DNA of 38,483 bases from a virus. The notes under the pieces are model-generated. The model was not told the DNA's origin, searched no databases, and was given only the letters and a program-made list of their open reading frames with translations. The DNA is taken from the IMG/VR virus record IMGVR_UViG_3300031183_000001; one strand, given 5' to 3'. Below are positions 1,760-20,116 of this stretch, piece by piece. The first letter of the stretch is position 1; the number at the start of each line of letters is the position of its first letter. Both the position numbers and the translations under genes were made by a program.

Positions 1760-2452
1760 TCACCAGTCGGTCACCACCTGCCGCACGGCGGGCCCGTCGA
1801 GGACGACTACGCCGCCGTCGTCGATCAGCCGCTCCACGACCGGGTGGCCGTAGCGCTGTACGAGGGCGTCGTAGGCGGCGTCGGCGGATGGTCCGCTGTT
1901 GGTGGTGACGACCAGGCGGCGCCCGTTGGCACAGCGGTGGTCGACGATGCGTTGGAGCTGCTCCAGCCACCAGTCGGTGACCCGCTCCCGTCCGAGGTCG
2001 TCGAGGATGAGCAGGTCGCAGGTGGTGGCGTAGTCGTAGGTGAGAGGAGCGCCGGAGTCGGGTTTGAGGGCGGCGGACAGGTCGGCCGCGGTCCATGCCA
2101 TGACCCAGGTGTTCCGGGTGTGGACGTCGTTGGCGATGGCGTAGGCGGCGGTGGTCTTGCCGGTGCGGCTGGGTCCGGCGAGGAGTAGGGCGCGGGGGCC
2201 GTGGTCCCACCAGCGGCGGATCCGCCCGCCGGGGTCTTGGTCGGGGCGGAGGGTGTCGTAGCTGGCGGTGGCGTATCTGCTGGGCCGGCGGCGGAGGTAG
2301 GCGGCGGCCCGGTTGGCGGCCTGTCGGGCGAGCCGGGCTGCGTGTTCGGCGGCTTCGGCGTCGGCGAGGAGCTGGTCGGCGCGGCTGAGGTCGATGTGTC
2401 GGCGGGCGGCGAGGTCTTGCCACGGCCCGAGCCCAGCCTTGAGGGTGATCAT
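1760..2452 (-). CDS. DnaC/IstB-like AAA+ helicase-loader ATPase, 230 aa
   Basis: Walker A GPSRTGKT and Walker B LLILDDLG. ATG at 2452 with GGAGG upstream; overlaps the stop of the upstream gene. Confidence 0.85.
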   Translation of the reverse strand: MITLKAGLGPWQDLAARRHIDLSRADQLLADAEAAEHAARLARQAANRAAAYLRRRPSRYATASYDTLRPDQDPGGRIRRWWDHGPRALLLAGPSRTGKTTAAYAIANDVHTRNTWVMAWTAADLSAALKPDSGAPLTYDYATTCDLLILDDLGRERVTDWWLEQLQRIVDHRCANGRRLVVTTNSGPSADAAYDALVQRYGHPVVERLIDDGGVVVLDGPAVRQVVTDW

Positions 2453-3318
2453 CGGGTGCCTCCGGTGGTGCTGGCGTAGGTGGCGTTGGCGCCGGAGCGG
2501 AATGGGTTGTCGTCGCGGCGGTCGATGTGCCGGTTGGCGCCGGTGGCGATGGCGGGGGTTGTTGGGCGGCGGCGGGTGTCTTCGGCGGCCTTGCGCATCC
2601 AGTTGCGCCAGGTGGCCTCCCAGTCGGTGCGGCGGCCCTTCGCGCCGGGTTGGGCGCGCCAGTAGTCGCGGAACTTGGCGGTTTCGGTGGGGCCGTCGAC
2701 GCCGGGGCAGTGTTCGCGGAACCACGCCTTCATGGCGGGGGTGACTTCGAAGTCGTCGGGGATGCGGGTGCCCTTGGGTTCGCGGGGCGCGGCTTGGGGC
2801 GCGTTCCCCTCGCGCTCCCCCCTGTTCCCTGTTCCCTGTTCCCTGTTCCTTTCCAGGGGTGAGTCGTCCGTGACGGTGTCGTGAGGGCTCAGTGAGTTGT
2901 CAGTGAGTTCGTGGTGACTGGCCTTTTCCGCTGGTAGGGCCAGGTCGTCCGTGCTGGTGGCGGCGCTGTCCACACCGTTGTCCACGGGAGGCGGTGCGGG
3001 GAGCTTGCTGCGCGTCGGGCGGTTGATTTTCTGGTGCTCACGCCAGTTGGTGATGGCTAGGTAGGAGCGCTCACCGACCTTGTACCGACGGATCAGTGAG
3101 GACTCACTGAGTGCTCTGAGGTCGAGCTCGACGTCGCTGGCGAGCCGGTCGTCGAGGGGCCAGATGGCGGCTTTGATGAGCCGGGCGTCATCGACGCAGC
3201 GGCCCTCGTCGTCAGCGTGCGTCCACAGCCCGATGAAGGTCAGCCGGGCCTCGACTGGCAGGCTGGCGACGGTCAGCGAGGTGAAGAACTCCGGCTTGAT
3301 CGTCCTGATCCGGGCCAC
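2449..3318 (-). CDS. Phage replication initiator / replisome organiser (DnaD-like N-terminal domain), 289 aa
   Basis: The N-terminus MARIRTIKPEFF... is, from memory, characteristic of phage replisome-organiser proteins. GTG start at 3318. Sits directly upstream of the loader ATPase gene. Confidence 0.8.
   Translation of the reverse strand: MARIRTIKPEFFTSLTVASLPVEARLTFIGLWTHADDEGRCVDDARLIKAAIWPLDDRLASDVELDLRALSESSLIRRYKVGERSYLAITNWREHQKINRPTRSKLPAPPPVDNGVDSAATSTDDLALPAEKASHHELTDNSLSPHDTVTDDSPLERNREQGTGNRGEREGNAPQAAPREPKGTRIPDDFEVTPAMKAWFREHCPGVDGPTETAKFRDYWRAQPGAKGRRTDWEATWRNWMRKAAEDTRRRPTTPAIATGANRHIDRRDDNPFRSGANATYASTTGGTR
2821..2848. repeat. Four perfect tandem copies of the heptamer CCTGTTC (GAACAGG on the coding strand)
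   Basis: Read directly: cctgttc x4, inside the linker region of the initiator gene. Confidence 0.95.
2890..3109. promoter_or_regulatory. Iteron-like CAGTGAG motifs: two direct copies plus an inverted pair
   Basis: CAGTGAGTT at 2890-2898 and 2901-2909. CAGTGAG-GA-CTCACTG at 3094-3109. The repeat-bearing linker around 2810-2960 looks lower in G+C than its surroundings. Confidence 0.5.
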
Positions 3319-6007: not shown

Positions 6008-7284
6008 GCCGCCACCTCCGCCGGCTGCCGCTCGTCGACGGGCGGCGTGGTCTGCTCGACGTACCGGCGGAGCCGGTCGATCACCGCCGCCACCTCGTCG
6101 GCCGTCAGCTCGCGCGTGCTCGCCACCGTCCGGCCGACGACCTCGCTGGCGTACGCCAGCCGCTCATCCCGGTCCGTGATGTCCGCCTCGCTGAACAAGG
6201 CGAACATCCGTCGACGCTGGTGGTCCTGCTGGTCGAGCTGTTCGCGGCGGGCCTGCCACCGCTGCTTGAACAGCTCGGCCTCCGCGTCGGTGATCGTGCC
6301 GGCGAGGTGTGCCCGACGCGCGTCATGCCAGACCTGGCGGAGGGCGTCCTGGCTGGTGGCGTTGGCGACGGTCTCCAGGAGGCGGGTGGCGACCTCGCCG
6401 GGCGTGGCTGGCCCGGCGGGCGGCCCGGACACGGGCCGGGTCGCCGGCGTGCCCGGCTCCGCCGACGCGGCCAGGTCGGCGGCGGTCACCTGCGGCTGCA
6501 CCAGGTCCCGCACATGCGCCTCGCCCGGCTCGCACTTCAAGACGTCGAAGATCACCTTTTCCAAGGTGAGGTCGGGCATGGGGCGGGGCCGGTCCACTCC
6601 GGGACGGATGCCGGCGTGTACCGACCGGGCGCCGACGATCAGCGGCGGGTGATCCCGGCTAACCCGGATCCACACCGAGGCGTCGTACGCCAAGTTCCGC
6701 TGCCCCTCGACGCGGTACTCCCGGCTGCCCTCGATCGGGCGGCCGTTGGCGTCGAGCGCCGCCACCTCCTTGCCGCGGGCGGTCATGACGACGATGCCCG
6801 GCATCGTCATGAGCAGGGTCATGAGCCGCCGGTGCTTGGCGTTGATCTCGTTCCAGATGTCCATGGAGATCTGCGGCTCGGTGTCAGGCGCCAGTCGGCG
6901 GCCCTTCCGCGCCAGGCGTTCACGGGCTTTGGCGTCGGCGAGGGCCTTGAGGAGGTCCCACTCGGCGGTCATCGAGTCGATGACCAGCACGACCGGGGGC
7001 TCGCCGGCGTCGGCGGCCCGCTGGGCCTCAGCCTTGACCGCTTCCACAGCGGCGAGGATCTGCGTCCAGGTGCCGTCGTGCTCGACGATCAGGTAGCGGG
7101 CTCCGGGGATGGCGCCGTACTCGTCGGCCGAGCCCTCGCCCAGGTCGATCCAGTAGGTCTGACCGACCCGGGGGCTGGCGGACAACTCGGCGCAGGCCCA
7201 GGACTTGCCAGCCTTCTCCGGCCCCTCGATCAAGATCAGGGGCCACGGCACGCGGCCGGTGGGTTTACGGGTACGCAAGGTCAT
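6004..7284 (-). CDS. RecA-like / Sak4-like AAA ATPase, 426 aa, with long C-terminal extension
   Basis: Walker A GPEKAGKS and Walker B VLVIDSM. ATG at 7284 with GGAG upstream. The rest of track ORF 6004..7848 is an Arg/Pro-rich shadow. Confidence 0.85.
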   Translation of the reverse strand: MTLRTRKPTGRVPWPLILIEGPEKAGKSWACAELSASPRVGQTYWIDLGEGSADEYGAIPGARYLIVEHDGTWTQILAAVEAVKAEAQRAADAGEPPVVLVIDSMTAEWDLLKALADAKARERLARKGRRLAPDTEPQISMDIWNEINAKHRRLMTLLMTMPGIVVMTARGKEVAALDANGRPIEGSREYRVEGQRNLAYDASVWIRVSRDHPPLIVGARSVHAGIRPGVDRPRPMPDLTLEKVIFDVLKCEPGEAHVRDLVQPQVTAADLAASAEPGTPATRPVSGPPAGPATPGEVATRLLETVANATSQDALRQVWHDARRAHLAGTITDAEAELFKQRWQARREQLDQQDHQRRRMFALFSEADITDRDERLAYASEVVGRTVASTRELTADEVAAVIDRLRRYVEQTTPPVDERQPAEVAA

Positions 7285-9019: not shown

Positions 9020-9277
9020 TCACGCGGCCCGGGCGGCGGCGCCACGGCGGCGACGGCGGGCGAGCCGGGCCTTCGCCTCGGCGAGGTCCCGGGCGCGTCG
9101 GCTCTCGACGGTGTGGGCGGCCAGGAACGCCGTCAGTTGGTCGTCGGTGAGGTATCGACGCTTGCCGATGCGGATGTGGTCGAACTCCCGCCGGCATGCC
9201 CGCTCCATCAGGGAGCGGAGAGGGATCGAGTACGTTGAGGCCACCTCGGACAGGGGATGGAGCCGGGGCAGGGTCAT
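9020..9277 (-). CDS. Small HTH DNA-binding protein (excisionase/MerR-like), 85 aa
   Basis: ATG at 9277 overlaps the upstream stop, with GAGGAG upstream. Contains LSEVASTYSIPLRSLMERACRREFDHIRIGKRRYL. Confidence 0.75.
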   Translation of the reverse strand: MTLPRLHPLSEVASTYSIPLRSLMERACRREFDHIRIGKRRYLTDDQLTAFLAAHTVESRRARDLAEAKARLARRRRRGAAARAA

Positions 9278-9480
9278 CACTTCTCCTCGGACGCGGTGAC
9301 GGGGACGGGGCACGCCTTGACGGTGTGGCGCGCGATGTAGTCGCACAGGCTGTCGCGCGTGATCCGGATCGGCCCGTTGCGGCCGGGGCCCTTGATGGCG
9401 ACCAGCTCACCCGCAGCGACGTAGCGACCGACGCTCCAGCGAGAGATCCGCAGATAGTCGGCTACCTCAGCGACGGTCAT
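9277..9480 (-). CDS. Excisionase-family HTH protein, 67 aa (Xis and/or Cro-like first gene of the leftward operon)
   Basis: MTVAEVADYLRISRWSVGRYVAAGELVAIKG...IRITRDSL matches the excisionase-type HTH pattern. Divergent from the repressor gene. Confidence 0.8.
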   Translation of the reverse strand: MTVAEVADYLRISRWSVGRYVAAGELVAIKGPGRNGPIRITRDSLCDYIARHTVKACPVPVTASEEK

Positions 9481-9663
9481 GAGCTCCACGCGACGCCTCC
9501 TGCAACGAGTTGCAACGTGATGTGCGGACAACACACTAACTCGCGTGGCATCGCGTTGCAACTCGTCTCATGACGAGACATCACGTCGCGTGATGATGCG
9601 ACTTGCAGCGCATTGCGAGACGGAACTATGTCCGGATCGTGTGATCGTGCTACAACGTGCTAC
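9481..9663. promoter_or_regulatory. Divergent switch region with several inverted and direct repeats (candidate operators)
   Basis: ACGAGTTGCAACG 9505-9517 pairs with CGTTGCAACTCGT 9554-9566. GTCTC-N5-GAGAC at 9565-9579. CATCACG-TCG-CGTGATG at 9579-9595, plus an extra CGTGATG at 9516-9522. Confidence 0.7.
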
Positions 9664-10077
9664 ATGACAGACGAGACGCCGGGCGTCGCGTACGACCTGT
9701 GGTTGCGCGTGCGCGCCGAGCAGGCATCCCGGGGCTGGACCGACGTCGAGCTACAGCGCCGATCGGGCATCCCACGGGGCACGGTCGACCGCCTACGGCG
9801 CGGCAAACGGGTACCCCAGGCACGGGTCGTCAACGCGCTGGCTGATGCGCTCGGAATCCCCCGCGCCGAGGCGGCCCGGCTCGCCGGGCTCGTCCCCGAA
9901 GGGCCAGCACCGGCGGCCGGCCAGGTCTCCGTGCGAGAGGCGATCCAACAGGATCCGACCTACACTGATGATGAACGCGCGGTCCTGCTGGCCCTGGTCG
10001 ACCTCATCGATCGGGCAGCAGCCCGTCGGCGTCGACGCCAGAAGGATGACGACGGCGACGACGAGGAAGCGGCCTAG
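9664..10077 (+). CDS. XRE-family HTH transcriptional regulator, candidate prophage repressor, 137 aa
   Basis: The HTH region reads WTDVELQRRSGIPRGTVDRLRRGKRVPQARVVNALADALG. Divergent from the lytic operon and adjacent to the integrase. The start is ambiguous (ATG 9664, ATG 9628 or TTG 9613). Confidence 0.8.
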   Translation: MTDETPGVAYDLWLRVRAEQASRGWTDVELQRRSGIPRGTVDRLRRGKRVPQARVVNALADALGIPRAEAARLAGLVPEGPAPAAGQVSVREAIQQDPTYTDDERAVLLALVDLIDRAAARRRRRQKDDDGDDEEAA

Positions 10078-11408
10078 TCGTCCTGGCTGATGGCGTCGTC
10101 GAGCGCGGTGATCACCGCGTCCTCGGCCGCCGGCATCAGGTCCCCGTAGATCTCGCTGGTGGTCGAGAGCTGTGCATGCCCGAGCCGGCGGGAGATAGCT
10201 AGGGGCGTGACGCGGGGATCGCTGAACAACCAGGCCGCGTGCGAGTGCCGCAGATCATGGGGTGTCGGCCGGCGGCGGAGCACCCCGGGACAGTCACAGG
10301 TGGACACCGCGGCCGGATCAGGGCCCATGTGAGCGTGGCAGCGAGTCATCCCGGCCGCGGTGATGGCGCCGCACGGCTCACCATGGTCGTTGGTGCCGCC
10401 GTAGTCGCGGCAGCGGCGGCGGCCCGGCTCAGCCCGGGGGACGCCCCGGTTCGGCGGCGGATGCGCCGGGCAGCGCATGGCGCGGATGACCGCCGGGTCC
10501 CAGTGCCGGAGCCGCCAGTTCCGGTAGTGGATCATGCCGCCGTTGGTCGCTCTGATCAGGAGCGCGTCGGCCGGTTGGCCCTCGACGAGCGGCCGGAGCG
10601 TCTCGTACAGGGCGTCGCTGATCGCGATCTCGCGGCGGCGTCGGCCCTTGGTGGTGCCCAGGTAGAGGCCGCCCCTGCCGTCCCGTTTCCAGGCCCGCCA
10701 GATCCTGACCTTCGCCCTGGAGGTGCCCGTCGGTGGCACGATGTGCCCCACGCTGAGCGCGACCGCCTCGGACCAGCGTGCACCCGTGCCGGCCAGCAGC
10801 TCGACCAGCGGACGATCCGCCGGGTCGACCGCCGCCAGCAACACCCGGTACTCCTCATGAGTAAGCCTCACCTGGCCGGGCTCGCCGGTGTCGTCGTGCT
10901 CGGTCAGGTCGCGGATCCAGTCGGTGCGCGTCACCGGGTTGTCGTCGATGAGCCGCTCGTGCACCGCCGCCCGGAACAGGGCATGCAACAGGGTGTAGTA
11001 GCGTGTCACGGATGTCGACCGGAGCCCGTCGGCGCGCAATCTGTTGAGAAAAGTGCCGATCTCGGTCGGGGTGACCCGGTCCAACCTCCTGTCGCCGATC
11101 GCGGGGTAGATGCGGTTGGCAAGCTGGGCCGCGTACCCGGCCCTGGTACCGGGGGTGATCCTCGTCTTGGCGGCCAGCCAGCGCTCGGCCCACTCGCGGA
11201 CGGTGGGCACCGTGGTGGTGTCCTCGTCGACGTCGAGGACGCCCATGGCGGCGTAGAGCTGGTCGGCTGTGATCTGGTGCCGGTGCGCCTCGGCGATGTC
11301 CCGGGCCTGCGCGGCGAGGTCCGCGGTGGGCCAGCTTGTGTACTGCTTGACGCCGTCGCGGCGCCAGACGACGCGCCAGGATCCGCCCCGCTGCTCGATC
11401 GATGCCAC
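10074..11408 (-). CDS. int: Tyrosine integrase, 444 aa, with a Cys/His-rich insertion in the catalytic domain
   Basis: Catalytic residues are readable: R in TGARWSE, H-x-x-R in HDLRHSH, H in LGHAQ, Y in EIYGDL. GTG start at 11408. The attP core lies about 135 bp upstream. Confidence 0.92.
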   Translation of the reverse strand: MASIEQRGGSWRVVWRRDGVKQYTSWPTADLAAQARDIAEAHRHQITADQLYAAMGVLDVDEDTTTVPTVREWAERWLAAKTRITPGTRAGYAAQLANRIYPAIGDRRLDRVTPTEIGTFLNRLRADGLRSTSVTRYYTLLHALFRAAVHERLIDDNPVTRTDWIRDLTEHDDTGEPGQVRLTHEEYRVLLAAVDPADRPLVELLAGTGARWSEAVALSVGHIVPPTGTSRAKVRIWRAWKRDGRGGLYLGTTKGRRRREIAISDALYETLRPLVEGQPADALLIRATNGGMIHYRNWRLRHWDPAVIRAMRCPAHPPPNRGVPRAEPGRRRCRDYGGTNDHGEPCGAITAAGMTRCHAHMGPDPAAVSTCDCPGVLRRRPTPHDLRHSHAAWLFSDPRVTPLAISRRLGHAQLSTTSEIYGDLMPAAEDAVITALDDAISQDD

Positions 11409-12022: not shown

Positions 12023-12420
12023 GTCGATACAACATCCACACCTTACATTCCGGGTACCGGACAATCGTCTATCTAGGACCGTACGCTCGGCTAATAGCTG
12101 GCGGTAATCGGGTCATGATATCCGCGCCACGGTGGGTGATCTACGCAGCCAGGATCATGCGGGTGCAACCACTGTTGGTGGTCCAAATAGGACGCATAAA
12201 TCGATATCAGTCATATTCCTAGCTGTCCGACTCTGCGGATGGTGCAATTTCGCCATGTGGTGAAAGTCGGATTCCCGTCGCCTATGTGTGGGTGGAGGAG
12301 GCCGGGTGACGAAGCCGCCTCCTCCATGTCCCATCCAGCAGCGGCCTACTCCGTGGCCAGGCCGCACCACCAGTATCGACGGTCACCCAGGGGCAGCCGC
12401 TACCCTGGGGGTGTGCCAGA

Positions 12421-12435
12421 TTGGCACCGTGCCAA
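12421..12435. promoter_or_regulatory. Palindrome TTGGCACCGTGCCAA, candidate operator 5 bp upstream of the RBS of the WhiJ-like gene
   Basis: Perfect 15-bp palindrome. An identical copy lies at 13629-13643. Confidence 0.65.
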
Positions 12436-12454
12436 CAGCAGGGAGGTGCTAGAG

Positions 12455-13324
12455 ATGGCCGCGGTGAGCCCCCTCGCCCGCCGGCTCCGTCTCGGCGCCG
12501 AGATCCGACGACTGCGCGAGCAGCGCGGCATGACCGGCGCCGAGCTGGGCAAGGCCGCCGGCCTCGACAGGACCGCGATCAGCAAGATTGAGAACGGAGA
12601 GAGGCGACCCCTACCTGCGCTACTCCGAATCCTCGACGTCCTCGTCGACCAGGGCCCGGAGTACACCGGGCTGCTCCAAGTGGCCCGCGACGGCCTGGAG
12701 CGGGGCTGGTGGCAACAGCCGGCGTACGCCCGGATGGGCGAGCGGCAGGCACGGACCGCGGATCTGGAGTGCGGCAGCATCGCGATCAGCACCTACCAGA
12801 GCGCGATGCTGCCGGGTCTACTCCAGACCGAGGCGTACGCACGGCATCGCGCCGATCTGGCGATCGCTGGCGGCGCCGACATCGACCTGGATGGCTCCAC
12901 CGTCGGCCGCCTACGCCGCCAGCACGAGATCCTCGGCCCGGACGGGCCGACCTACGACGTCGTCCTAGAGCCGCAAGCCATCTGGCGGGCGCCCGTCCCG
13001 CCAGCGGTCATGGCCGAGCAACTCAAACACCTGCTCGACCTGATCACGACGCGACCGGGCCTGCGAGTCCGCGTGCTCCCGGTTGACGCCCGGGTCAACA
13101 CCGGATACGTGCCACGTAGCCCGTTCGTGGTCTACCGCTACCCCGACCCGGCCGACCTCACCCTGGTCGCCGTCGACACGGTGTCGACCGACCTGCTGGT
13201 GACCGAGCCGGCCGAGTCGGAGCGGTACGCGCAGATGCACCAGCAACTGTGCGCCGCCGCACTCTCCGAGGAGGAGAGTGCGGGTCTCATCCAGCAGGCG
13301 GCCGATGCGATGGCCGCCATGTAA
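12455..13324 (+). CDS. WhiJ-type XRE HTH regulator with DUF5753-like C-terminal domain, 289 aa
   Basis: ATG at 12455 with GGGAGG 8 nt upstream. HTH reads MTGAELGKAAGLDRTAISKIENGERRP. Hallmark motif LPGLLQTEAYARH. Confidence 0.88.
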   Translation: MAAVSPLARRLRLGAEIRRLREQRGMTGAELGKAAGLDRTAISKIENGERRPLPALLRILDVLVDQGPEYTGLLQVARDGLERGWWQQPAYARMGERQARTADLECGSIAISTYQSAMLPGLLQTEAYARHRADLAIAGGADIDLDGSTVGRLRRQHEILGPDGPTYDVVLEPQAIWRAPVPPAVMAEQLKHLLDLITTRPGLRVRVLPVDARVNTGYVPRSPFVVYRYPDPADLTLVAVDTVSTDLLVTEPAESERYAQMHQQLCAAALSEEESAGLIQQAADAMAAM

Positions 13325-13334
13325 GGAGGTCCCC

Positions 13335-13532
13335 GTGGAGTACAAGCCGTTCCGCAAGTCCAGCCGTAGCGATGCTGGTCAGGACTGCGTCGAGGTTGCC
13401 GACGCTGTCGACGGCAGCGCCGTCCTCGTCCGCGACAGCAAGGACCCGTCCGGCCCGGTGCTGAACTTCGGGTCGGTGTCCTGGTCGGCATTCGTCGACG
13501 CGGTCAAGGCCAAGGCTGGTCGCCTGGCCTGA
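13335..13532 (+). CDS. DUF397-family small protein, 65 aa
   Basis: GTG at 13335 with AAGGAGG upstream. Hallmark FRKSSRS...QDCVEVA...VLVRDSKDPSGPVLNF...W..F. Confidence 0.88.
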   Translation: MEYKPFRKSSRSDAGQDCVEVADAVDGSAVLVRDSKDPSGPVLNFGSVSWSAFVDAVKAKAGRLA

Positions 13533-13554
13533 CCTGACCTGTTCCTCACCTGGA

Positions 13555-13581
13555 GGGCCGGCAGCGGGATGCTGCCGGCCC
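13555..13581 (+). terminator. Hairpin terminator after the DUF397 gene
   Basis: GGGCCGGCAGC-GGGAT-GCTGCCGGCCC, an 11-bp stem. Confidence 0.6.
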
Positions 13582-13628
13582 TCGTCATGTTCGCTCCGTG
13601 ATTGCGGAGTGTCCTCTTGTGACATTGG

Positions 13629-13686
13629 TTGGCACCGTGCCAAGCTGGCACCGTGCTTCGGCACGGTGCCGGACCGGCACGGTGCA
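13629..13686. promoter_or_regulatory. Cluster of four GGCAC(C/G)GTGCC palindromic sites
   Basis: Sites at 13631-13641, 13647-13657, 13660-13670 and 13676-13686. The middle two also form GGCACCGTGC-TTCG-GCACGGTGCC. Confidence 0.7.
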
Positions 13687-13857
13687 AGGCGCACCGCTGG
13701 GCGCGGTAACACGGAGATCCCTTTGTGTTGACCACGCGCTCGGCACCCCAGGCGCCGCCTCGTCGCCTCCACGGGGCGGCGCCCCAGACCGGGTGTGGTG
13801 GTCGGAGCATGGACGGGCCCGGCCACCACGCCCCCGCCCGGACCAGGGGGTTGCGAG

Positions 13858-14028
13858 ATGGGCGCACGACACGAACACGAGGTCCGCAAGCGACAGCAGG
13901 CTGCCAGCGCCGGCCAGCAGCGGGACCAGAACGGCGACCAGGACGACGACCAGGACCGGGCACTGCTCGACCGGCTCGCCGACCGGTGGGGGCTCCCACA
14001 GGACGGGGGTCAGCGGTGCCCCCGCTGA
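13858..14028 (+). CDS. Small acidic/polar hypothetical protein, 56 aa
   Basis: ATG at 13858 within track ORF 13795..14028. Plausible amino-acid composition (MGARHEHEVRKRQQAASAGQQRDQNGDQDDDQDRALLDRLADRWGL...). Confidence 0.45.
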   Translation: MGARHEHEVRKRQQAASAGQQRDQNGDQDDDQDRALLDRLADRWGLPQDGGQRCPR

Positions 14029-14312
14029 CTCGCGCGCCTCGACCGGGCGACGTGCTCCGGGTGGCCAGAGCCGCGTCCGTCCAGTTCAGCGGTGACCGGG
14101 CACTCCGCTTCCGGGTCATCCGGGTGCATGACTGGACCACGTACCGGGGCTGGTGTTGGCTCGACGGCTACGTGCTCGACCGGCATGGTGAGGCGGTGGA
14201 CCGGCGGACGATCTACGTGCAGCCGGCAGGGCTGTGGCTGCTGGAGCCGCGGCAGGTGCCGGTACAGCGGCGGCCGGTCGGGGCCCGACGGCCGGCCGTG
14301 CGGCGCGCCTGA
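14016..14312 (+). CDS. Hypothetical protein, about 98 aa
   Basis: Only the C-terminal part of track ORF 13725..14312 looks protein-like (VQFSGDRALRFRVIRVHDWTTYRGWCWLDGYVLDRHGEAVDRRTIYVQPAGLWLLEP). The GTG at 14016 is a guess. Confidence 0.5.
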   Translation: MPPLTRAPRPGDVLRVARAASVQFSGDRALRFRVIRVHDWTTYRGWCWLDGYVLDRHGEAVDRRTIYVQPAGLWLLEPRQVPVQRRPVGARRPAVRRA

Positions 14313-14321
14313 CGGGCGCGC

Positions 14322-14397
14322 GGTGGCCCCGGCTGCCGGCACAGCCGGGGCCACCCCACGACGAACGGCCCCGGCCTCCTGTGTGGAGGCCGGGGCC
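14322..14397. terminator. Two strong hairpins between convergent genes (likely bidirectional terminators)
   Basis: GGTGGCCCCGGCTG-CCGGCA-CAGCCGGGGCCACC at 14322-14355. GGCCCCGGCCTCC-TGTGT-GGAGGCCGGGGCC at 14367-14397. Confidence 0.7.
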
Positions 14398-14470
14398 GGT
14401 GGACCGTCTGGGCCTACCCGGGTGAGGGCCGCGCCGAGCTGGGCATCCCGCAGGACGGCTGTCCAGCCTG

Positions 14471-14692
14471 TCATGCCGGCGAAGAACCAGCCTGCCGGAC
14501 GACCCAGGACCGTCGTAGCTGGTAGATACGCCTGCGCGCCAGCGGCTTGATCCTCCACCCCTCGCCCTCGGCGCCCCACACCTGGGCACGCCGATCCTCA
14601 TCGGCCAGCGAGCGTTGGATGGTGCGCGCGGAGACCTCCAGCAGCTTCGCCGCCTGGGCGACGCTTATCCACTCGCCATTGCCGCTGGTCAT
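14471..14692 (-). CDS. Small HTH DNA-binding protein, 73 aa, divergent from the translocase operon (Kor-like candidate)
   Basis: ATG at 14692 with GGGGGGAG upstream. Contains ISVAQAAKLLEVSARTIQRSL. Confidence 0.75.
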   Translation of the reverse strand: MTSGNGEWISVAQAAKLLEVSARTIQRSLADEDRRAQVWGAEGEGWRIKPLARRRIYQLRRSWVVRQAGSSPA

Positions 14693-14758
14693 GTCTCCCC
14701 CCGGGTCGCAGTCCACCACCGGATGATCCCACGACGGTCACGACACATCACGCTATGG

Positions 14759-14799
14759 CATGTCGCGACAGTTGCGCCAAACGCGACTGTCGCGACATG
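14759..14799. promoter_or_regulatory. Twin palindromes TGTCGCGACA within a 14-bp inverted repeat (candidate operators)
   Basis: CATGTCGCGACAGT at 14759-14772 and ACTGTCGCGACATG at 14786-14799, separated by a 13-bp spacer. The right arm overlaps the ATG at 14797. Confidence 0.7.
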
Positions 14800-16155
14800 A
14801 TGACGGGCATGAACATCACGGAGATCGCCGAGACGGTCACCAACGCCGTGCGCGACCACATCCAGCCCGTCCTCATCGGCGCTGGCGCGGTCGGCACCCT
14901 GATCGGCCTCTGGACGATCTGGCGGTGGTGGACCCGCGGCGAGGCCCACACCCGCATGGGTGTCCTCGCCGTCGCCCTGGCCACCGGTATCGCCGGCGAG
15001 GGCATGTGGGAGGTCGCGCGGTACGAGCTGGAACTGCCCCCGTACCTCGCCGTCGCGTTGTTCGCGTTCCTTGAGGTCGTCATGCTCAGCCAGGGCGCGA
15101 TGGCCCGGTACAAGCTGCGCGCCGGCCAAGAGCCCGCCGCCCGCCGGCACATGGGCTTCGTGTGGGCCGCCGCGGTGGCCTCTGGCCTGATCGCGGCCAG
15201 CGCCGGCAACTCGCTGACCGAGGTGCTCCTTCGGCTGATCGCCCCACCAGTCGCGGCCGGCATCGTGTGGATGGAGCTGACCGCCGACCAGGCCGTCGAC
15301 CGGCCCCGCCAGCAGACGAGCTGGATCTGGACGCCACGCCGCATCGGCATCCACCTCGGCCTGATCCGACCAGGCGCCGAGGACCTGGTCCAGGTCGACC
15401 GCGATCGTCGCATCGACGCGATCACCGTCACCGCCCACCGGCTGCACCACGGGTCGAAGAGGCTCGCCAGGATGCGCCGGGCCCGTCTCCGCCGGCTGGC
15501 GCTCCAGGCTGATGACGCGATGGTCGCCGAGGCGCAACGCCGGGTCGCCCGCGTTCACCGCATCGAGCGCCTGACCGCCCCCGACGCCGCGCCAGTCGAC
15601 CAGGTCGACGACCGGACCCGCGCCGCGCTGGACGAGATCCGCCTCCAGACCCGGGAGACCACCCGCCAGCTCCGCGCGCAGATGCCGACGCCGGACCACG
15701 CGTGGTCCAACAACGTGGTCCGCATCCCGACCCGTCTGGTGGGTCAGGGGTGGACCGCGCCGACGGACCAGGACGTGGACCGCTGGCTGGACCAGCAGTC
15801 GGACCAGACGGTGGACCACGCTCCGGTCCAGACCGCGGACCAGGCTGCGGACCAGACCGAGGGCACCGAGTCGGACCAGACGGTGGACCAGCCGGCGCGG
15901 GTAGACCGGCAGGTCAACGGCCGGTCCAAGCGTCGGTCTACGCCGCCTGCCGACAGCACGATCCCGCCCCGCGTCCAGCAGATGGCGCGAGAGCTTCGCC
16001 GCCGCTACCGGGGCGAGATCCCGCCCCGCGCAGAGGTGATGCGGACCCTCGGCTGGACGTCGGCGGACTACGCGAGCAAGGCAATCAACCTGGTCCGCGC
16101 TGAGCGCACCCGCACGGACCAGACCGACCCCGACCCCGACCGCGCCGCGGTCTGA
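14797..16155 (+). CDS. Multi-pass membrane protein (DUF2637/Spd-like N-terminus), about 452 aa, with a DQxx tetrapeptide repeat region
   Basis: Four to five hydrophobic helices in the first ~170 aa, then an Arg-rich helical region, then the repeats. The start could be 14797, 14800 or 14809. Confidence 0.8.
   Translation: MMTGMNITEIAETVTNAVRDHIQPVLIGAGAVGTLIGLWTIWRWWTRGEAHTRMGVLAVALATGIAGEGMWEVARYELELPPYLAVALFAFLEVVMLSQGAMARYKLRAGQEPAARRHMGFVWAAAVASGLIAASAGNSLTEVLLRLIAPPVAAGIVWMELTADQAVDRPRQQTSWIWTPRRIGIHLGLIRPGAEDLVQVDRDRRIDAITVTAHRLHHGSKRLARMRRARLRRLALQADDAMVAEAQRRVARVHRIERLTAPDAAPVDQVDDRTRAALDEIRLQTRETTRQLRAQMPTPDHAWSNNVVRIPTRLVGQGWTAPTDQDVDRWLDQQSDQTVDHAPVQTADQAADQTEGTESDQTVDQPARVDRQVNGRSKRRSTPPADSTIPPRVQQMARELRRRYRGEIPPRAEVMRTLGWTSADYASKAINLVRAERTRTDQTDPDPDRAAV
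15752..15891 (+). repeat. 12-bp-phased array of GGACCAG
   Basis: Registers start at 15765, 15777, 15789 and so on up to 15885. Seven are perfect GGACCAG, three have one mismatch and one is degenerate. The exact 20-mer TCGGACCAGACGGTGGACCA occurs at 15799-15818 and 15871-15890. Confidence 0.9.
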
Positions 16156-16168
16156 AAGGAGATTCCTC

Positions 16169-16486
16169 GTGTTGACCCGAGTCCGCGCCCACATCACCCA
16201 CGCCCGCCGCGTCTGGGCCGAGCAGTCCCAGATCACCGCGGCGACGGCCACCTACTACGACGACACCGAGGCCCTGGCCACCCGGGCGGCTGCGGCTGAG
16301 CGGATCGCCACCGGCCTCGACCGGCAGGCAGCCCACCTGGCCGCCTCGTGGCTGGCCAGGGCCGTGACCGCGCTGCCGCCGTCGGACACCGTGCAGGCAA
16401 TGGCCGCCGACTGGCGGCGGCGCGCCGAGGAGATGTGGTACGACCTGGCGACCGCCCTCGACCTTGCCGAGGGTCACGGTGCGTAA
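16169..16486 (+). CDS. Hypothetical protein, 105 aa
   Basis: GTG at 16169 with AAAGGAG 7 nt upstream. Track ORF. Confidence 0.75.
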   Translation: MLTRVRAHITHARRVWAEQSQITAATATYYDDTEALATRAAAAERIATGLDRQAAHLAASWLARAVTALPPSDTVQAMAADWRRRAEEMWYDLATALDLAEGHGA

Positions 16487-16610
16487 CCTCAACCCCTTGA
16501 TCCATCAAGGGGTTGAGAAGGGGTCTACGGCGGTGAAAGCCGCCCCCGGGGCCGTCCCAGCGGCCATCAACCTCTTGACGCCTCAACCCCTTGAACAACC
16601 GTGCGTAACC
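16477..16610. repeat. Repeat cluster of CTCAACCCCTTGA(T) (two direct copies, one inverted, one degenerate) plus GTGCGTAACC x2; includes a 14-bp-stem hairpin
   Basis: Hairpin CTCAACCCCTTGAT-CC-ATCAAGGGGTTGAG at 16488-16517. CCTCAACCCCTTGA at 16581-16594. GTGCGTAACC at 16479-16488 and 16601-16610. Degenerate CATCAACCTCTTGA at 16566-16579. Confidence 0.85.
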
Positions 16611-17711
16611 GACGGGGCGAAGAAGACACCGGCGAAGCGGCGGCGGTCGCTGCTGTTGGATCCGGCCGTCATCGTCACCGGTATCACGCTGCTCCTGGTC
16701 GGCGAGCTGGTCCTGTGGGCCGCGGTCGGTTGGCTGTGGTGGGCCGTCATCAACATGGGGATCGCGTTGGTCGTAGCCGCCGGGGTTCTGGCGTGGCGAC
16801 GACGCACCCCTGGATGGCTCGACAGGCTGCTCGGCGGCCGTAGCCGGCCCGGTCGCACGTCGACGACGACAACGCGGACCACCACACGGGGGGCTGGTGT
16901 TCCAGGGCGGGGTGTCCTCAGCCGGCTGCTGCCCGGCCGCGGCCGGGGCACTGCCAGCCCGAGTGGTGGTGGCCGCGGCGGTGGCCGGCCGAGGGGTGTC
17001 CTGGGCGGCCTGCTCCCCGGTGGTGGCGGCCGGTCCGCCGGGCGGCCTGCTGGTGGCCGGTCGTCGACGGGCCGGCCCGGCCGCAGCCCCGGCGGCGGGT
17101 GGTGGCCGTTCGCCGGCGGCGGCCGGGGCAAGAGCAGCAGCCCGAGGAACCCGAAGAAGGGGAACGGGAACGGCAAGAAGAGCAACGGCAGCAGCGTCCT
17201 GGGCGACATCGTGCACGGGCTGACCACCCCGGCACCAGGACGCAAGCCGTCACCAGGACCAGCCGCGACGGCGGCCAAGAAGGAGACCGAACGGAAGGAG
17301 AGCGAGCCGATGACGGTGCGACACGACGACGACGCCAGCCTCCAGCGATGGGGCCGCAACCTCAAGACGATCAGCCCGGCCATCGAGGAGTTGCTCCAAG
17401 CGGCCCGGCAGCAAGACGAGCTGGCCGAAGCGATCGCCTCCGGCGTCTCCAAGCTGGCCGTACAGGGCGAGTCGGAGCTGCCCGCGGACCGGGCACTCGT
17501 CGCCGAGGCCGAGGCCATCGCCGCCGAGCTCCGCGAGCTGATGACCGACGACAGGGCCGGCAGGCTGGCTCGGCTCAGGGACCGCGCGGACGAGCTGGCG
17601 CGGTCATACGGACGCCTGCACGAGGTCGACGAGGCGCGGCTCGCCGGCGAGCGCGGCGGCCGCGCCCGGGAGAAGCGGGCGGACGTGGCCGCCGCCGAGA
17701 GCGACACCTGA
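16533..17711 (+). CDS. Membrane protein, about 392 aa: two TM helices, a long Gly/Arg-rich low-complexity tract, and a C-terminal coiled coil
   Basis: Track ORF 16464..17711. GTG at 16533 is chosen because it follows the stop and hairpin of the previous gene. TM region reads VIVTGITLLLVGELVLWAAVGWLWWAVINMGIALVVAAGVLAW. Confidence 0.7.
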   Translation: MKAAPGAVPAAINLLTPQPLEQPCVTDGAKKTPAKRRRSLLLDPAVIVTGITLLLVGELVLWAAVGWLWWAVINMGIALVVAAGVLAWRRRTPGWLDRLLGGRSRPGRTSTTTTRTTTRGAGVPGRGVLSRLLPGRGRGTASPSGGGRGGGRPRGVLGGLLPGGGGRSAGRPAGGRSSTGRPGRSPGGGWWPFAGGGRGKSSSPRNPKKGNGNGKKSNGSSVLGDIVHGLTTPAPGRKPSPGPAATAAKKETERKESEPMTVRHDDDASLQRWGRNLKTISPAIEELLQAARQQDELAEAIASGVSKLAVQGESELPADRALVAEAEAIAAELRELMTDDRAGRLARLRDRADELARSYGRLHEVDEARLAGERGGRAREKRADVAAAESDT

Positions 17712-17750
17712 CAGCAACGGAACACCACAGACACGACGAGGGGAGACATC

Positions 17751-19823
17751 ATGGGCGGGGCGCGATGGGTACCCGCATGGCTGCTGGTCATGGCCGGCAT
17801 GGTCGTCCTGCTACGCAGCGACGTACCCCTGGAGTGGTGGTTGCCGCTTGGCGTGGCCGCCGTCGCTGCAGTGGTGACACTGATCATCACCTTGGTCCTC
17901 GAACAGCAGAGAGCGCTGGTCCACCGCCTCGTCGCCGTCGTGGGTGCCGGTGTGTGGACGGCGTGGGTGGCCCGGTCCGGGCCGTCCACCCTGCTGGTGC
18001 TGGCCGCGCTCGGCGGCGGCGCGATCGTCGCCGCCCTGGAGGTCGCCGCCGCCCGGGGCCGACCCACGGTGCTGTGGGTCGGCCCCGCCCCGGCCGACGT
18101 CGACCGCCGGCCGGGGCGAGTCCAGGAATGGGAAGCCCTACTGCGGCGGGTCGTCGTCAAGAAGGGCAGCGAGGGCGCATCGGCCCAGATCCGGGTCACC
18201 GAGGTGACCCCGTGGCCGGACCGCACCGCCGGCGAACAGGTACACGTCGAGCTGCCCGAGGGCATGACCGTCAAGGACCTGGCCGCGTACGCGGACCGCA
18301 TCGCCGCCGCCCGCCGGCTGCCGGCCGGATGCGTCGTCCGCACCCTCGACGGCCCCCACCAAGGCGCCGCGGTCCTCGACGTCATGCTGCGCGACGGCCT
18401 CGCCGGCGACGGCCGGACGATCACCGAACCGACCACACCGGCCTCGATCTACGACCCGATCGACGTCGCGTACACCGCCCGCGGCGAGGCCCTATCCGTG
18501 TCACTGCGGGAGCAGAGCATGATCGTCGGCGGCACCACCGGCAGCGGCAAGACCACCTTGCTGCACCGGCTGATCATGCACCTCGCCCGGTGCACCGACA
18601 CGCTGATCTGGGTGGTCGACCCCAACGGCGGCGGGGTGGCCGCGCCGTGGATCGGCCCGTGGGCACGCGGTGAGGCGCCGGCGCCCACGGTGGATTGGGT
18701 GGCCGAGGACCCGTACGAGGCGGCCGTGCTGGTCGCGGTCGCGGCCGCGATCGTCAAGGACAGGAAGACATCCCAGGAGGCGCTCAGGAGGAAGCGGCAG
18801 GCGAACTCGCACATCTTGCCGGTGGACCGGGACCTGCCACTGATCATGGTGATTACCGACGAGGGCGGAGAGCTGCGGCAGATGGCCGGCCTGCTCGCCA
18901 CCCTCGTGGACGAGGGGATCGCCCGGCTCGCCCAGATCGGCCGCGCCGAAGGCGGACGCGTCATCATGTCTGTCCTCCGCGGTACCGCCGACCTGCTCGG
19001 CAAGGGGCTCAGGTCCGTCGCCGGCGTCCGGGTCTGTCTGAGGATGAACGAGGAAGACGAGTGCGACTACATCCTGGGCGTCAACCCCGGCCGTGCCCGC
19101 CTGCTGCACCGGGGCAGCGCCTACGTCTACCGCACCGACACCGACTACCGCCCCGTCCTCGGCCGCACCCTCAACGTCGACCTGGCTGCCATCGAACAGC
19201 ACGCGGTCGCGACCGCGCACCTGCGGCCGACTCTGGACGACCGCGCTCGCCGGGTCGCCGCCCGGCTCACCGTCCAGGACGTCCTCGATGGCCGTGACCC
19301 GATGCAGCACCTGGAGATTGCCCGGCACCCGGTGATGCGGGACGTGGCGGCCGGCCGCGCGTACGAGGGCCGCTGGGAACGCAAGGCACGCATGCTCGCC
19401 GAGCTGCGCGGCGAAGAAGAGCCGCCCGAGGAGGAGCCGGCGCCTCGACGGGTGCTGTCGGACCGGCCCACGGTGGCCGCCCCGGGCAGCGCGGCGGAGC
19501 GGCTGTTGCTGGCTACGGGCGTCCGTGTCGACACTCCGGCGGCTGTCGCCGTCGAGACGGACGCCCGGCCACGGCTGCGGCTGGTCCCCGACACCGGCGA
19601 AGCCGAGGAGCCGACGCGGCCGTCGACGGCCCGCGAAGCTATCCTCGCGGTCCTGAACGACGCGCGGCCGGACCCACTGAGGGCTGCCGAGGTCCACGCC
19701 CGGGTGGCCGCGGACTACGGCATCGAGGTGACCCCACAGCGGGTCCACCAGGTCCTGGCCGCGCTCGTCAAGGCGGGCGATGTGCGGCAGGCCGGCGGCG
19801 GCCGGTACGAGATGGCCAGCTAA
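17751..19823 (+). CDS. FtsK/SpoIIIE-family DNA translocase with TraB-like architecture, 690 aa
   Basis: About four N-terminal TM helices. Walker A GGTTGSGKTT (around 18531-18554) and Walker B LPLIMVITDEGGE. The C-terminal ~70 aa look like a winged helix (REAILAVLNDARPDPLRAAEVHARVAADYGIEVTPQRVHQVLAALVKAGDV). ATG at 17751 with GAGGGGAG upstream. Confidence 0.92.
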   Translation: MGGARWVPAWLLVMAGMVVLLRSDVPLEWWLPLGVAAVAAVVTLIITLVLEQQRALVHRLVAVVGAGVWTAWVARSGPSTLLVLAALGGGAIVAALEVAAARGRPTVLWVGPAPADVDRRPGRVQEWEALLRRVVVKKGSEGASAQIRVTEVTPWPDRTAGEQVHVELPEGMTVKDLAAYADRIAAARRLPAGCVVRTLDGPHQGAAVLDVMLRDGLAGDGRTITEPTTPASIYDPIDVAYTARGEALSVSLREQSMIVGGTTGSGKTTLLHRLIMHLARCTDTLIWVVDPNGGGVAAPWIGPWARGEAPAPTVDWVAEDPYEAAVLVAVAAAIVKDRKTSQEALRRKRQANSHILPVDRDLPLIMVITDEGGELRQMAGLLATLVDEGIARLAQIGRAEGGRVIMSVLRGTADLLGKGLRSVAGVRVCLRMNEEDECDYILGVNPGRARLLHRGSAYVYRTDTDYRPVLGRTLNVDLAAIEQHAVATAHLRPTLDDRARRVAARLTVQDVLDGRDPMQHLEIARHPVMRDVAAGRAYEGRWERKARMLAELRGEEEPPEEEPAPRRVLSDRPTVAAPGSAAERLLLATGVRVDTPAAVAVETDARPRLRLVPDTGEAEEPTRPSTAREAILAVLNDARPDPLRAAEVHARVAADYGIEVTPQRVHQVLAALVKAGDVRQAGGGRYEMAS

Positions 19824-19842
19824 CCGGCCCGTAGACACTGAA

Positions 19843-19867
19843 GGGCCCCCGCCAGTGGCGGGGGCCC
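19843..19867. terminator. Hairpin terminator between convergent genes
   Basis: GGGCCCCCGCC-AGT-GGCGGGGGCCC followed by GTGTGTTGG. Confidence 0.7.
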
Positions 19868-19876
19868 GTGTGTTGG

Positions 19877-20116
19877 TCAGGAAGCGGCGAGGAGGCGGGC
19901 GATCGCGGATCCAGGCGGCGGCGCCACCGGCTGCCGACCCGGGCTACCGGCGGCGGGCAGCGTGCCGGACCGGAGCGCCCGGATCCGCTGTCCCTCGGCG
20001 ATCGCGGCCCGGATCGAGGCGAGCAGCTCGTCGGGGTCGGCTCCGGCGGCGACCGCCTCGATCGTGGCGTCGGCGGCCCGGCGGGCCAGCCGCGCAGCGT
20101 CGGTCTCGTGTGCCAT
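19877..20116 (-). CDS. Hypothetical protein, 79 aa
   Basis: ATG at 20116 within track ORF 19877..20134. Confidence 0.6.
   Translation of the reverse strand: MAHETDAARLARRAADATIEAVAAGADPDELLASIRAAIAEGQRIRALRSGTLPAAGSPGRQPVAPPPGSAIARLLAAS

Follow-up and report, generated by a model that had tools for sequence, protein, structure and literature searches.

The virus record IMGVR_UViG_3300031183_000001 (38,483 nucleotides; this whole stretch is referred to below as the 38.5-kb window) has a G+C content of 72%, and codon-position GC analysis gave a clean gene map. Within it lies a cassette at 14471-20116, which comprises a gene for a helix-turn-helix (HTH) protein, an operator, four plus-strand genes (g1 to g4), a convergent small gene and flanking hairpins. 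The last gene of the operon, g4, encodes an FtsK-like membrane ATPase, and its closest non-phage relatives lie in transfer-type operons of actinomycete plasmids. The features are listed here with protein lengths in amino acids (aa), transmembrane segments as TM and G+C at the third codon position as GC3.

14317-14360 and 14366-14398, no strand: two tandem G+C-rich hairpins (inverted repeats I9 and I24)
14471-14719, minus strand: divergent gene for an 82-aa HTH protein, with sub-threshold HTH_17/excisionase matches (E ~1e-3)
14759-14799, no strand: operator-like 41-bp palindrome (inverted repeat I10, 18-nt arms, 94% complementary)
14797-16155, plus strand: g1, a 452-aa membrane protein (from GC3, predicted membrane helices and a structure model)
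15765-16122, plus strand: GGACCAG array, seven copies at 15765-15891 with a period of ~12 nt and an eighth at 16116
16169-16486, plus strand: g2, a soluble, poorly conserved 105-aa protein, with good GC3 and a good ribosome-binding site
16533-17711, plus strand: g3, with a TM hairpin (residues 38-89), a long cytoplasmic Gly/Arg-rich tract and a helical C-terminal domain
17751-19823, plus strand: g4, with four TM helices (residues 9-101), a motor (120-555), a disordered linker (556-625) and a winged helix (627-688)
19843-19867, no strand: perfect hairpin with an 11-bp stem between the convergent genes g4 and 19877-20116 (from sequence and folding)
19877-20116, minus strand: gene for a 79-aa helical protein, convergent with g4 (compared by tblastn)

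All four operon genes have the codon-position GC of real genes (GC3 0.85-0.92, GC1 > GC2); the start of g1 could also be placed at 14809 or 14755.

An initial annotation, made from the sequence alone, had assigned to 17751-19823 N-terminal TM helices, an FtsK/SpoIIIE motor with GTTGSGKT and VITDE motifs and a winged-helix tail, and each of these was found in g4. The Walker A (GGTTGSGKT, Lys267) and Walker B (VITDEGGE, Asp370/Glu371) motifs are invariant in 23 homologues, and in the AlphaFold model (predicted local distance difference test, pLDDT, 82.5) the winged helix consists of three helices and a beta-hairpin. The Pfam family FtsK_SpoIIIE (PF01580) matched with 30.4 bits against a cut-off of 24, over residues 237-280 only, around Walker A, and phrog_31069 ('FtsK/SpoIIIE-like protein') matched with E 2.6e-57. 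A profile search of the PDB gave FtsK at E 5e-6. In Foldseek comparisons g4 aligned with the FtsK motor (2iut, 6t8b and 2ius) over ~420 columns at E 1e-16 to 1e-18, followed by the conjugative coupling protein TcpA, then EccC/EssC and then HerA; the best of these alignments (E ~1e-18) assigns the ATPase to the FtsK fold. The best NCBIfam model was plasmid_TraB (NF041214), with a collinear alignment (g4 7-517 against model 10-501 of 639). TraB proteins have been described as consisting of an N-terminal membrane part, a translocase domain and a C-terminal winged HTH (wHTH) (PMC4447253), and g4 shows all three parts. Thus g4 combines the FtsK fold with the TraB architecture while lying outside the curated TraB equivalog family, so that its earlier description as a TraB-like translocase holds for fold and nearest family, but not at the level of the equivalog. 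A protein of this kind would be expected to form a hexameric ring and to pump double-stranded DNA.

The protein encoded upstream of g4 also has counterparts in plasmids. Two TM helices, a Gly/Arg-rich tract and a coiled coil had been ascribed to g3; the first two were recovered, but the supposed coiled coil corresponds to a conserved helical C-terminal domain of ~155 aa, the coding region of which lies directly 5' of the ATPase gene in all close loci. No Pfam family matched g3. In profile comparisons its C-terminal family matched the counterpart from plasmids and from the Thermobifida phage P1312 with an hhalign probability of 94% (E 1.4e-7), and gp101 of the Streptomyces phage Hiyaa matched the plasmid family with E 7.7e-19 and the window family with E 1.5e-5. 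These comparisons identify g3 as a homologue of the protein encoded just upstream of the translocase in actinomycete plasmids, with Hiyaa gp101 bridging the two families. Assignment of the g3 C-terminal domain to PF28214 ('TraA-like'), a family that is not part of the local Pfam copy, was rejected, as hhalign shows no relation. In one of the homologous loci, which carry L numbers here, a precomputed match to PF28214 'TraA-like' belongs to a 122-aa gene (L040, 8069-8437) situated just 5' of a distant FtsK-like ATPase.

When 72,556 plasmids were searched with tblastn, 30 actinomycete plasmids matched. In the five that were inspected (pSQ10, pTH1, pAGRA3207_2, pADI95-16c and an unnamed NBC_01178 plasmid) the genes are arranged as in the window, namely a protein with TM helices and an HTH, a large TM Gly/Arg protein and an FtsK-like gene. 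g4 is 30-34% identical to the plasmid translocases (E 1e-44 to 1e-48), with the alignments including part of the N-terminal region. The position-1 protein is annotated as DUF2637 in one of the five. Two of them, pTH1 and pAGRA3207_2, have an annotated divergent regulator of the GntR type, and in pTH1 a NUDIX gene follows the module. The pTH1 position-1 protein matched SpdB of pIJ101, a genetically defined spread protein, with E 9e-11. Because these plasmid modules are largely uncharacterised, functional inference rests on the pIJ101 SpdB link and on the TraB literature.

As initially proposed, the first gene of the operon encodes a multi-pass membrane protein. Five hydrophobic helices are predicted in the N-terminal part of g1 (residues 7-166), followed by a helical stalk, a disordered, acidic, Asp-Gln-rich linker (residues 300-387, pLDDT 30-45 in the model) and a confidently modelled three-helix HTH-like domain at the C-terminus (pLDDT ~90), in which g1 homologues have HTH Pfam matches. 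SpdB-type proteins are integral membrane proteins of ~4 TM helices whose genes share an operon with that of the translocase, and g1, as first gene of its operon, conforms to this architecture; SpdB2 has been reported to form pores, to bind peptidoglycan and DNA and to be needed for pock formation (PMC4447253). A Spd-like identity was nevertheless not borne out by profile and structure comparisons. Neither g1 nor seven homologues matched DUF2637 (PF10935) in Pfam, hhalign probabilities against seven plasmid or phage position-1 proteins did not exceed 7%, and Foldseek against the PDB and BFVD gave nothing significant (E >=0.03). We therefore rejected the assignment of g1 to DUF2637 or SpdB, which it resembles by architecture and operon position only. 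The equivalent position is occupied by a DUF2637 protein in L038 and in the NBC_01178 plasmid and by the SpdB homologue in pTH1. The metagenomic loci L027/L028 share 97-99% identity with the window in the regulator, operator, g2, g3 and g4, but just ~50% in g1; it looks as if most of g1 was recently replaced in an otherwise identical cassette, with the GGACCAG array kept.

This array is the coding sequence of the disordered g1 linker, where it reads in frame as x-Asp-Gln; Tandem Repeats Finder reported a period of 12 with 9.1 copies. The window holds 29 copies of GGACCAG, compared with 9.65 +/- 3.14 in shuffled sequences. The amino acid that precedes Asp varies (Thr, Leu, Ser, Ala or Val) and its codon ends in G at all eight positions of the array (8/8), against 4/29 for codons before Asp-Gln elsewhere in window genes (Fisher p = 1.3e-5). 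Three diverged g1 genes show the same codon-end G (7/7 in L027, 5/5 in L039 and 6/8 in L040), which brings the total over the four genes to 26/28 (p = 7e-10). Since the normally free third codon base is fixed while the first two bases vary, these data argue for selection on the DNA 7-mer GGACCAG, beyond slippage of a peptide repeat.

Constraint of this kind suggests that the array is a candidate cis-acting site. In plasmids, clt loci consist of direct 8-bp repeats that are read by TraB (PMC4447253), and SpdA2 of pIJ101 binds a site inside its own gene (PMC4170104). The distribution of the array allowed the possible readers to be compared. L001, L025 and L002 have a wHTH recognition helix very similar to that of g4 and lack the array, whereas it is present in both L039 and L040, whose ATPases are only distantly related (E 5e-8 and 0.008); this distribution gives no support to the g4 wHTH as the reader of GGACCAG. 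The g1 protein of L025 has a different C-terminal HTH and no array, and in L015, where the g1 C-terminus is similar, the array is formed by CTGCCCA x7 instead. The array thus tracks the type of g1 and not the ATPase wHTH, and its most likely reader would be the HTH of g1 itself.

Other cassettes hold arrays of different motifs:

L010, 6680-7440, both orientations: ~70 CGTACGG in ~800 bp, with no credible open reading frame (ORF)
L013: ~40 CGGACAG around a g1-like gene
L020, 11735-12739: 22 CGTACG in frame as Arg-Thr (CGT codon), within the linker region of a TM+HTH-like ORF that directly follows the ATPase gene
P1312 ORF62: ~55 GGACC/GGTCC, in a linker of ~900 bp
L016, L017, L024 and Hiyaa: CCGGACC-type arrays

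The L010 array, like similar ones in L009 and L019 (all IMG/VR contigs), lies inside the cassette between the g1-like gene and g3, and far exceeds any described plasmid clt in size. CGT is a rare Arg codon in high-GC actinomycetes, and the CGTACG hexamers of L020 are another sign of DNA-level selection within a coding linker. GGWCC was considered as a universal core motif and rejected; it peaks in the window, L027, L001, L025, P1312, L016 and L024, but not in other loci. P1312 ORF62 (L035 8641-10275; KT021004 38715-40349) is annotated as hypothetical and is overlapped by an ORF call on the opposite strand. It lies directly downstream of the FtsK-like ORF63 and has an N-terminal HTH-like segment, a repeat linker of ~900 bp and a C-terminal 4-TM domain, an arrangement in which we see a permuted version of g1.

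Control of the operon was predicted at the outset to involve a divergent small HTH gene with palindromic operators, and the layout is as described: the gene at 14471-14719 is transcribed away from the operon, and the 41-bp palindrome lies over the g1 start. The palindrome is composed of two copies of the 10-bp palindrome TGTCGCGACA and overlaps the g1 start codon; these are the only two exact copies in the window. As an RNA hairpin it has a folding energy of -34.3 kcal/mol (z -7.2). The idea that a shared operator ties the operon to the phage immunity circuit was dropped, as the operator was found nowhere else in the window. Contig L027 keeps both the 82-aa gene and the operator, and in the relatives L025, L039 and L040 the position of this gene is occupied by divergent GntR/UTRA regulators, the regulator class of the plasmid traR/korA kil-kor pairs (PMC4447253). 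The 82-aa protein is a candidate for the operon repressor in a Kor-like role. Here the earlier proposal was right in part: a divergent gene with a palindromic operator fits kil-kor logic, but the regulator in the window is HTH_17-like and not of the GntR type of TraR/KorA.

Strong hairpins on either side of the operon had likewise been noted, and their folding energies stand out from those of shuffled sequences (z -4.3 to -7.7). The upstream pair at 14317-14398 gave -75 kcal/mol on the plus strand (z -6.2) and -81 kcal/mol on the minus strand (z -7.7), and may insulate the plus-strand gene 14016-14312 from the HTH gene on the minus strand in the manner of a bidirectional terminator. The downstream hairpin at 19843-19867 gave -31.4 kcal/mol (z -4.3). 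Consensus scans for sigma-70 promoters and intrinsic terminators gave nothing useful in this high-GC DNA.

The initial annotation had proposed, as one of two hypotheses, that the element is a chimera of a phage and an actinomycete integrative and conjugative element (AICE). That it is a singular chimera is contradicted by a search of 5.8 billion proteins with the ATPase as query, which returned 114 matches, nearly all at 37-99% identity and full length; prophages and phage contigs of the Micromonosporaceae carry the cassette in large numbers. The genera named as sources are Micromonospora, Plantactinospora, Polymorphospora, Verrucosispora and Actinoplanes. With regard to co-occurrence with virion genes, a survey that had been proposed, phage genes were present in every context of a g4 homologue that was read. 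The loci include:

L001, Micromonospora chersina: holin, Sipho_Gp37 and Dit
L025, Polymorphospora rubra: tail genes; two GntR genes upstream
L026, Actinoplanes: holin and tail genes; the cassette abuts comEC/holA
L037, Micromonospora sp. WMMD1102: amidase and tail genes
L038, Verrucosispora: a genuine DUF2637 protein at position 1
L027, metagenome: holin
21 loci, IMG/VR contigs: viral contigs

Across many phage backbones the cassette proteins are 37-70% identical. In prophages it is flanked on one side by lysis or tail genes of the other strand and on the other side by the prophage end. In one type of contig, 44-50 kb long, it is co-directional among early genes, in the order YqaJ, cassette, DEAD helicase and PolA. 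Looser versions occur in isolated phages, namely ORF62-64 of Thermobifida phage P1312, which behaved lytically according to its description, and gp98-102 of the Hiyaa group of Streptomyces phages. The Hiyaa record has no integrase or repressor among 125 features, and this occurrence, together with those among early genes, fits a role independent of lysogeny. A scan of GTDB representative genomes with the ATPase profile gave 600 pattern stretches of which none was confirmed, a miss on the part of the tool, since isolate genomes encode 50-62% identical proteins. The cassette is a recurrent module of Micromonosporaceae phages, often with a GntR/UTRA regulator. In Hiyaa (NC_048139.1) the stretch 49800-56661 holds an FtsK-like gene, a gene with the g3 domain and a membrane-protein gene; a modified base in this genome is suggested by two annotated enzymes, a PurZ-like 2-aminooxy adenylosuccinate synthetase and a PurB-like lyase.

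The two small genes of the cassette have narrower distributions. g2 matched no family in the profile libraries searched and has homologues only in L027 and L011. Homologues of 19877-20116 lie directly downstream of the ATPase in L001, L002, L004 and L007, with related sequences in L027, L001 and L038, and this gene probably belongs to the module.

The complete set of tailed-phage genes (virion, lysis and integrase) that the initial annotation had described was confirmed, all on the minus strand. The carrier is a temperate phage of the siphovirus type, with a filamentous soil actinomycete as host, in which the late, early/replication and integrase programmes are all encoded on that strand. Read from right to left, the late block consists of a small-terminase-like gene, TerL, portal, a MuF-like head protein, a scaffold-like gene, the major capsid protein, connectors, the major tail protein, the tape measure, minor tail proteins, endolysin and holin. 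The early/replication block at the left end encodes a helicase, a RecA/Sak4-like protein, a replication initiator and a DnaC-like loader, and a tyrosine integrase is encoded at 10074-11408 (minus strand). Opposition of the operon to the lytic strand therefore stands for this window; the argument drawn from it, that the operon sits in a prophage-expressed accessory arm, does not generalise, because other cassettes are co-directional with early genes and a looser version occurs in Hiyaa, which has no annotated integrase.

No close nucleotide relative of the window was found among 50,697 phage records, and the operon has no nucleotide match to known phages. The only matches lie elsewhere in the window, to Micromonospora phage pMLP1 (77% over 665 bases) and to Mycobacterium phage Kersh (~210 bases, 77%). 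The former, at 6599-7263 within the RecA/Sak4-like gene, is the longest match of the first 25 kb to any deposited phage and supports a host in the Micromonosporaceae, the family to which the protein homologues also point. The G+C content of the block is the same as that of the rest of the phage. AICEs are compact elements with Int, Rep (RepSA, RepAM or Prim-Pol) and Tra (FtsK domain) (PMC3218068) and carry no virion genes. Int and Tra are present here, but the window is not an AICE because replication is of the phage type (phrog_1408 initiator, DnaC-like loader and helicase) and the virion and lysis genes are there in full. A nested AICE was also rejected, as the block is without an int, rep or NUDIX gene of its own and its GC is uniform with its surroundings.

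Several other stretches of the window are of regulatory or replicative interest. At 9277-10077 a 67-aa HTH_17-like gene (9277-9480, minus strand) and a 137-aa HTH repressor-like ORF (9664-10077, plus strand), which the GC3 filter had overlooked, diverge from a lower-GC region of ~180 bp rich in GTTGCAAC- and CACGTGATG-type repeats; the arrangement is probably an immunity switch. Beside the integrase, 12413-13532 (plus strand) holds two overlapping genes, for a 303-aa Xre-HTH+DUF5753 protein and an 84-aa DUF397 protein, a pair that is frequent in Streptomyces-type genomes. Four copies of the palindrome GGCAC(C/G)GTGCC at 13632-13685, in a gene-poor region of ~480 bp (13533-14015) 5' of the small gene 14016-14312, look like an operator. 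Iteron-like direct repeats at 2820-2920 (CCTGTTCC x4 and CTCACTGA x4), within the replication-initiator gene (2449-3318), are probably the phage replication origin.

We give about an even chance to the interpretation that the cassette encodes a repressor-gated machine of the TraB/Spd type that moves phage DNA across septa or between hyphae. It builds on the fold and architecture of g4, on homologues of g4 and g3 in the transfer operons of plasmids, on conserved synteny and the layout of repressor and operator, and on the recurrence of the cassette in phages and the constrained array. With the same middling confidence, we regard the module as an accessory of the plasmid/AICE conjugation and intramycelial-spreading type that is carried as standard by a lineage of tailed phages of the Micromonosporaceae. 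By analogy with plasmid kil-kor systems, the 82-aa HTH protein bound to the double TGTCGCGACA palindrome over the g1 start would keep the operon off. On derepression, g4 would enter the membrane through its four TM helices, assemble into an FtsK-like ring and pump duplex DNA. g3, anchored by its TM hairpin, may offer its cytoplasmic Arg/Gly tract and conserved domain to the pump, and g1, held by its five-helix anchor, may tether phage DNA at the membrane by binding of its C-terminal HTH to the GGACCAG array. The net outcome would be that phage DNA, with no need for virions, passes hyphal cross-walls or enters neighbouring hyphae, a form of movement that was floated earlier for phage SpdB2 homologues (PMC4447253).

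A number of points weigh against this interpretation. g4 scored 33.6 bits where the TraB equivalog cut-off is 800, and it resembles pIJ101 Tra only around Walker A. Attempts to link g1 to SpdB/DUF2637 by homology had no success. The array goes with the type of g1 and not with the ATPase wHTH, which leaves the classical pairing of a TraB wHTH with clt putative here; in other loci the repeat signal lies partly in low-complexity coding tracts, where an origin by slippage is possible. There is little obvious gain for a lytic phage in exporting naked DNA unless the recipient compartment supports replication. Finally, the position of the operon on the lysogeny-side strand, with its own repressor, would equally suit exclusion expressed from a prophage.

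Among the alternatives, the one that survives best proposes a segregation or retention device, in which pump and tether act much as FtsK/SpoIIIE does on a chromosome. Phage DNA in its excised, replicating or pseudolysogenic state would be kept in, or brought into, the right compartment at septation or sporulation, with no intercellular transfer. We consider this unlikely. The FtsK fold and wHTH of g4 are consistent with such a role, and the repeat arrays resemble centromeres or sites of the type of the FtsK-orienting polar sequences (KOPS), but the cassette is without a ParA or ParB partner and its closest non-phage relatives are in transfer-type plasmid operons (with GntR, NUDIX and an SpdB homologue), not in par loci. 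SpdA2 and sps of pIJ101 affect segregational stability and not transfer (PMC4170104), 'DNA segregation' was proposed by the authors of P1312, and the version in Hiyaa, where no integrase is annotated, is compatible with such a role; an integrated prophage, however, would need no such device.

It is distinctly improbable, in our view, that the cassette serves superinfection exclusion or defence, as a prophage-expressed membrane complex that blocks, expels or traps incoming foreign DNA. Its location would suit this, since here and in several prophages it lies between the lysis genes and the prophage end, opposite the late strand, insulated by terminators and under its own regulator, and neighbouring plus-strand genes are of the lysogeny type (the Xre/DUF5753 and DUF397 pair and the repressor-like ORF). 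On the other hand, the same pump and partner occur in early gene blocks and in Hiyaa, tight operator-gated repression is unexpected for a constitutively protective prophage gene, and the recognition arrays that the cassette itself encodes point to DNA of the element as its target. A search of PADLOC-DB v2 gave for g4 generic P-loop similarity only (mad8 1.4e-8, SspH 3.9e-8), with no system match, and nothing significant for g1, g2 or g3, so that membership in a known defence system was rejected.

That the block is an inert remnant of an AICE or plasmid inserted in the phage, with no phage-related function, is very improbable: its homology to plasmid transfer genes, its modular, insulated form and its mosaicism (the L027 ATPase is 99% identical and g1 ~50%) might suggest this, but no second integrase, Rep or NUDIX gene lies in or beside it, its GC is uniform with that of the phage, all four ORFs are intact with high GC3, 37-70% identity across many phage backbones implies long-term selection in phages, and neither a ratio of non-synonymous to synonymous substitutions of ~1 nor frequent frameshifts in homologues were seen in the loci read.

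Returning to the movement of phage DNA, a broader form of this interpretation can be put forward tentatively. A lineage of tailed phages of mycelial actinomycetes might possess a second, virion-independent route of spread, in which a repressor-gated membrane machine of the TraB/Spd type pumps the phage genome and a membrane-tethered HTH protein reads a dual-coding 7-mer array in its own linker, with a motif specific to the lineage (GGACCAG, CGGACAG, CGTACGG or GGACC/GGTCC). FtsK-like genes in actinophages have been annotated before and mentioned as possible developmental or segregation factors, and SpdB2 homologues have been noted in phiC31 and VWB. In the searchable literature we found no description of the multi-gene module as such, of its homology to plasmid operons through the g3-type partner, or of its kil-kor-type gating and dual-coding repeat arrays. 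Should the module indeed carry phage DNA from one hyphal compartment or cell to another, spread of the transduction type and of the conjugation type would no longer be sharply distinct, and it would explain how phages handle compartmentalised multicellular hosts, a question of current interest for phages of Streptomyces. Spread of a phage genome without virions becomes directly testable, and the repeat arrays offer a concrete and cheaply testable prediction, a protein-DNA recognition code inside a gene's own linker. The module would also give a genetic handle on the poorly understood partners of TraB-type conjugation; the g3-type family, common to plasmids and phages, has no Pfam entry. The annotated 'FtsK-like' genes of many actinophages should be read as parts of multi-gene modules and not as isolated morons.

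Among known systems, the five plasmid modules described above share with the cassette a g3-type partner, with its TM hairpin, its Gly/Arg tract and a C-terminal domain homologous to that of g3, and a position-1 protein with TM helices and a C-terminal HTH. They differ in their DUF3307 genes (pAGRA3207_2 and pADI95-16c), GntR and NUDIX genes (the latter in pTH1) and in having no virion genes. The TraB/Spd systems of Streptomyces plasmids (pSVH1, pIJ101 and pSN22) have in common with the window an FtsK-like translocase in the membrane that ends in a wHTH, multi-TM proteins of the Spd type encoded in the same operon, a divergent repressor (kil-kor), a mycelial host and cis sites of short direct repeats that sometimes lie in coding DNA. 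Here, in contrast, g1 is not detectably SpdB/DUF2637, the regulator is HTH_17-like and the carrier is a tailed phage. With regard to SpdA2 and sps of pIJ101, the parallel is a DNA-binding Spd protein with a site in its own gene, the logic proposed for the g1 HTH and its array; sps, however, is a single palindrome and SpdA2 a small soluble protein, whereas the window has an eight-copy direct-repeat array and a membrane-anchored g1 whose binding is putative.

Among phages, P1312 (ORF62-64), Hiyaa, Spocter, Keanu and Galactica (gp98-102) and PHROG 31069 have an ATPase homologous to g4 (31-33% identity), with a protein or domain of the g3 type next to it, and a TM+HTH gene with a short-repeat array. 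In the P1312 and Hiyaa-group records these genes are listed just as hypothetical, membrane protein or DNA segregation, with no module, regulator or cis array described. The version in the window differs from them as a compact four-gene operon with its own repressor and insulators in a temperate 38-kb phage. Finally, the chromosomal FtsK/SpoIIIE proteins resemble g4 in their alpha/beta motor, Walker motifs, membrane anchor and C-terminal winged helix, which in those proteins reads short polar DNA motifs. Sequence similarity to chromosomal FtsK is very low (profile E 5e-6 over ~95 residues) and the N-terminal domain is another one; unlike them, g4 is carried by a mobile element together with dedicated partner proteins.

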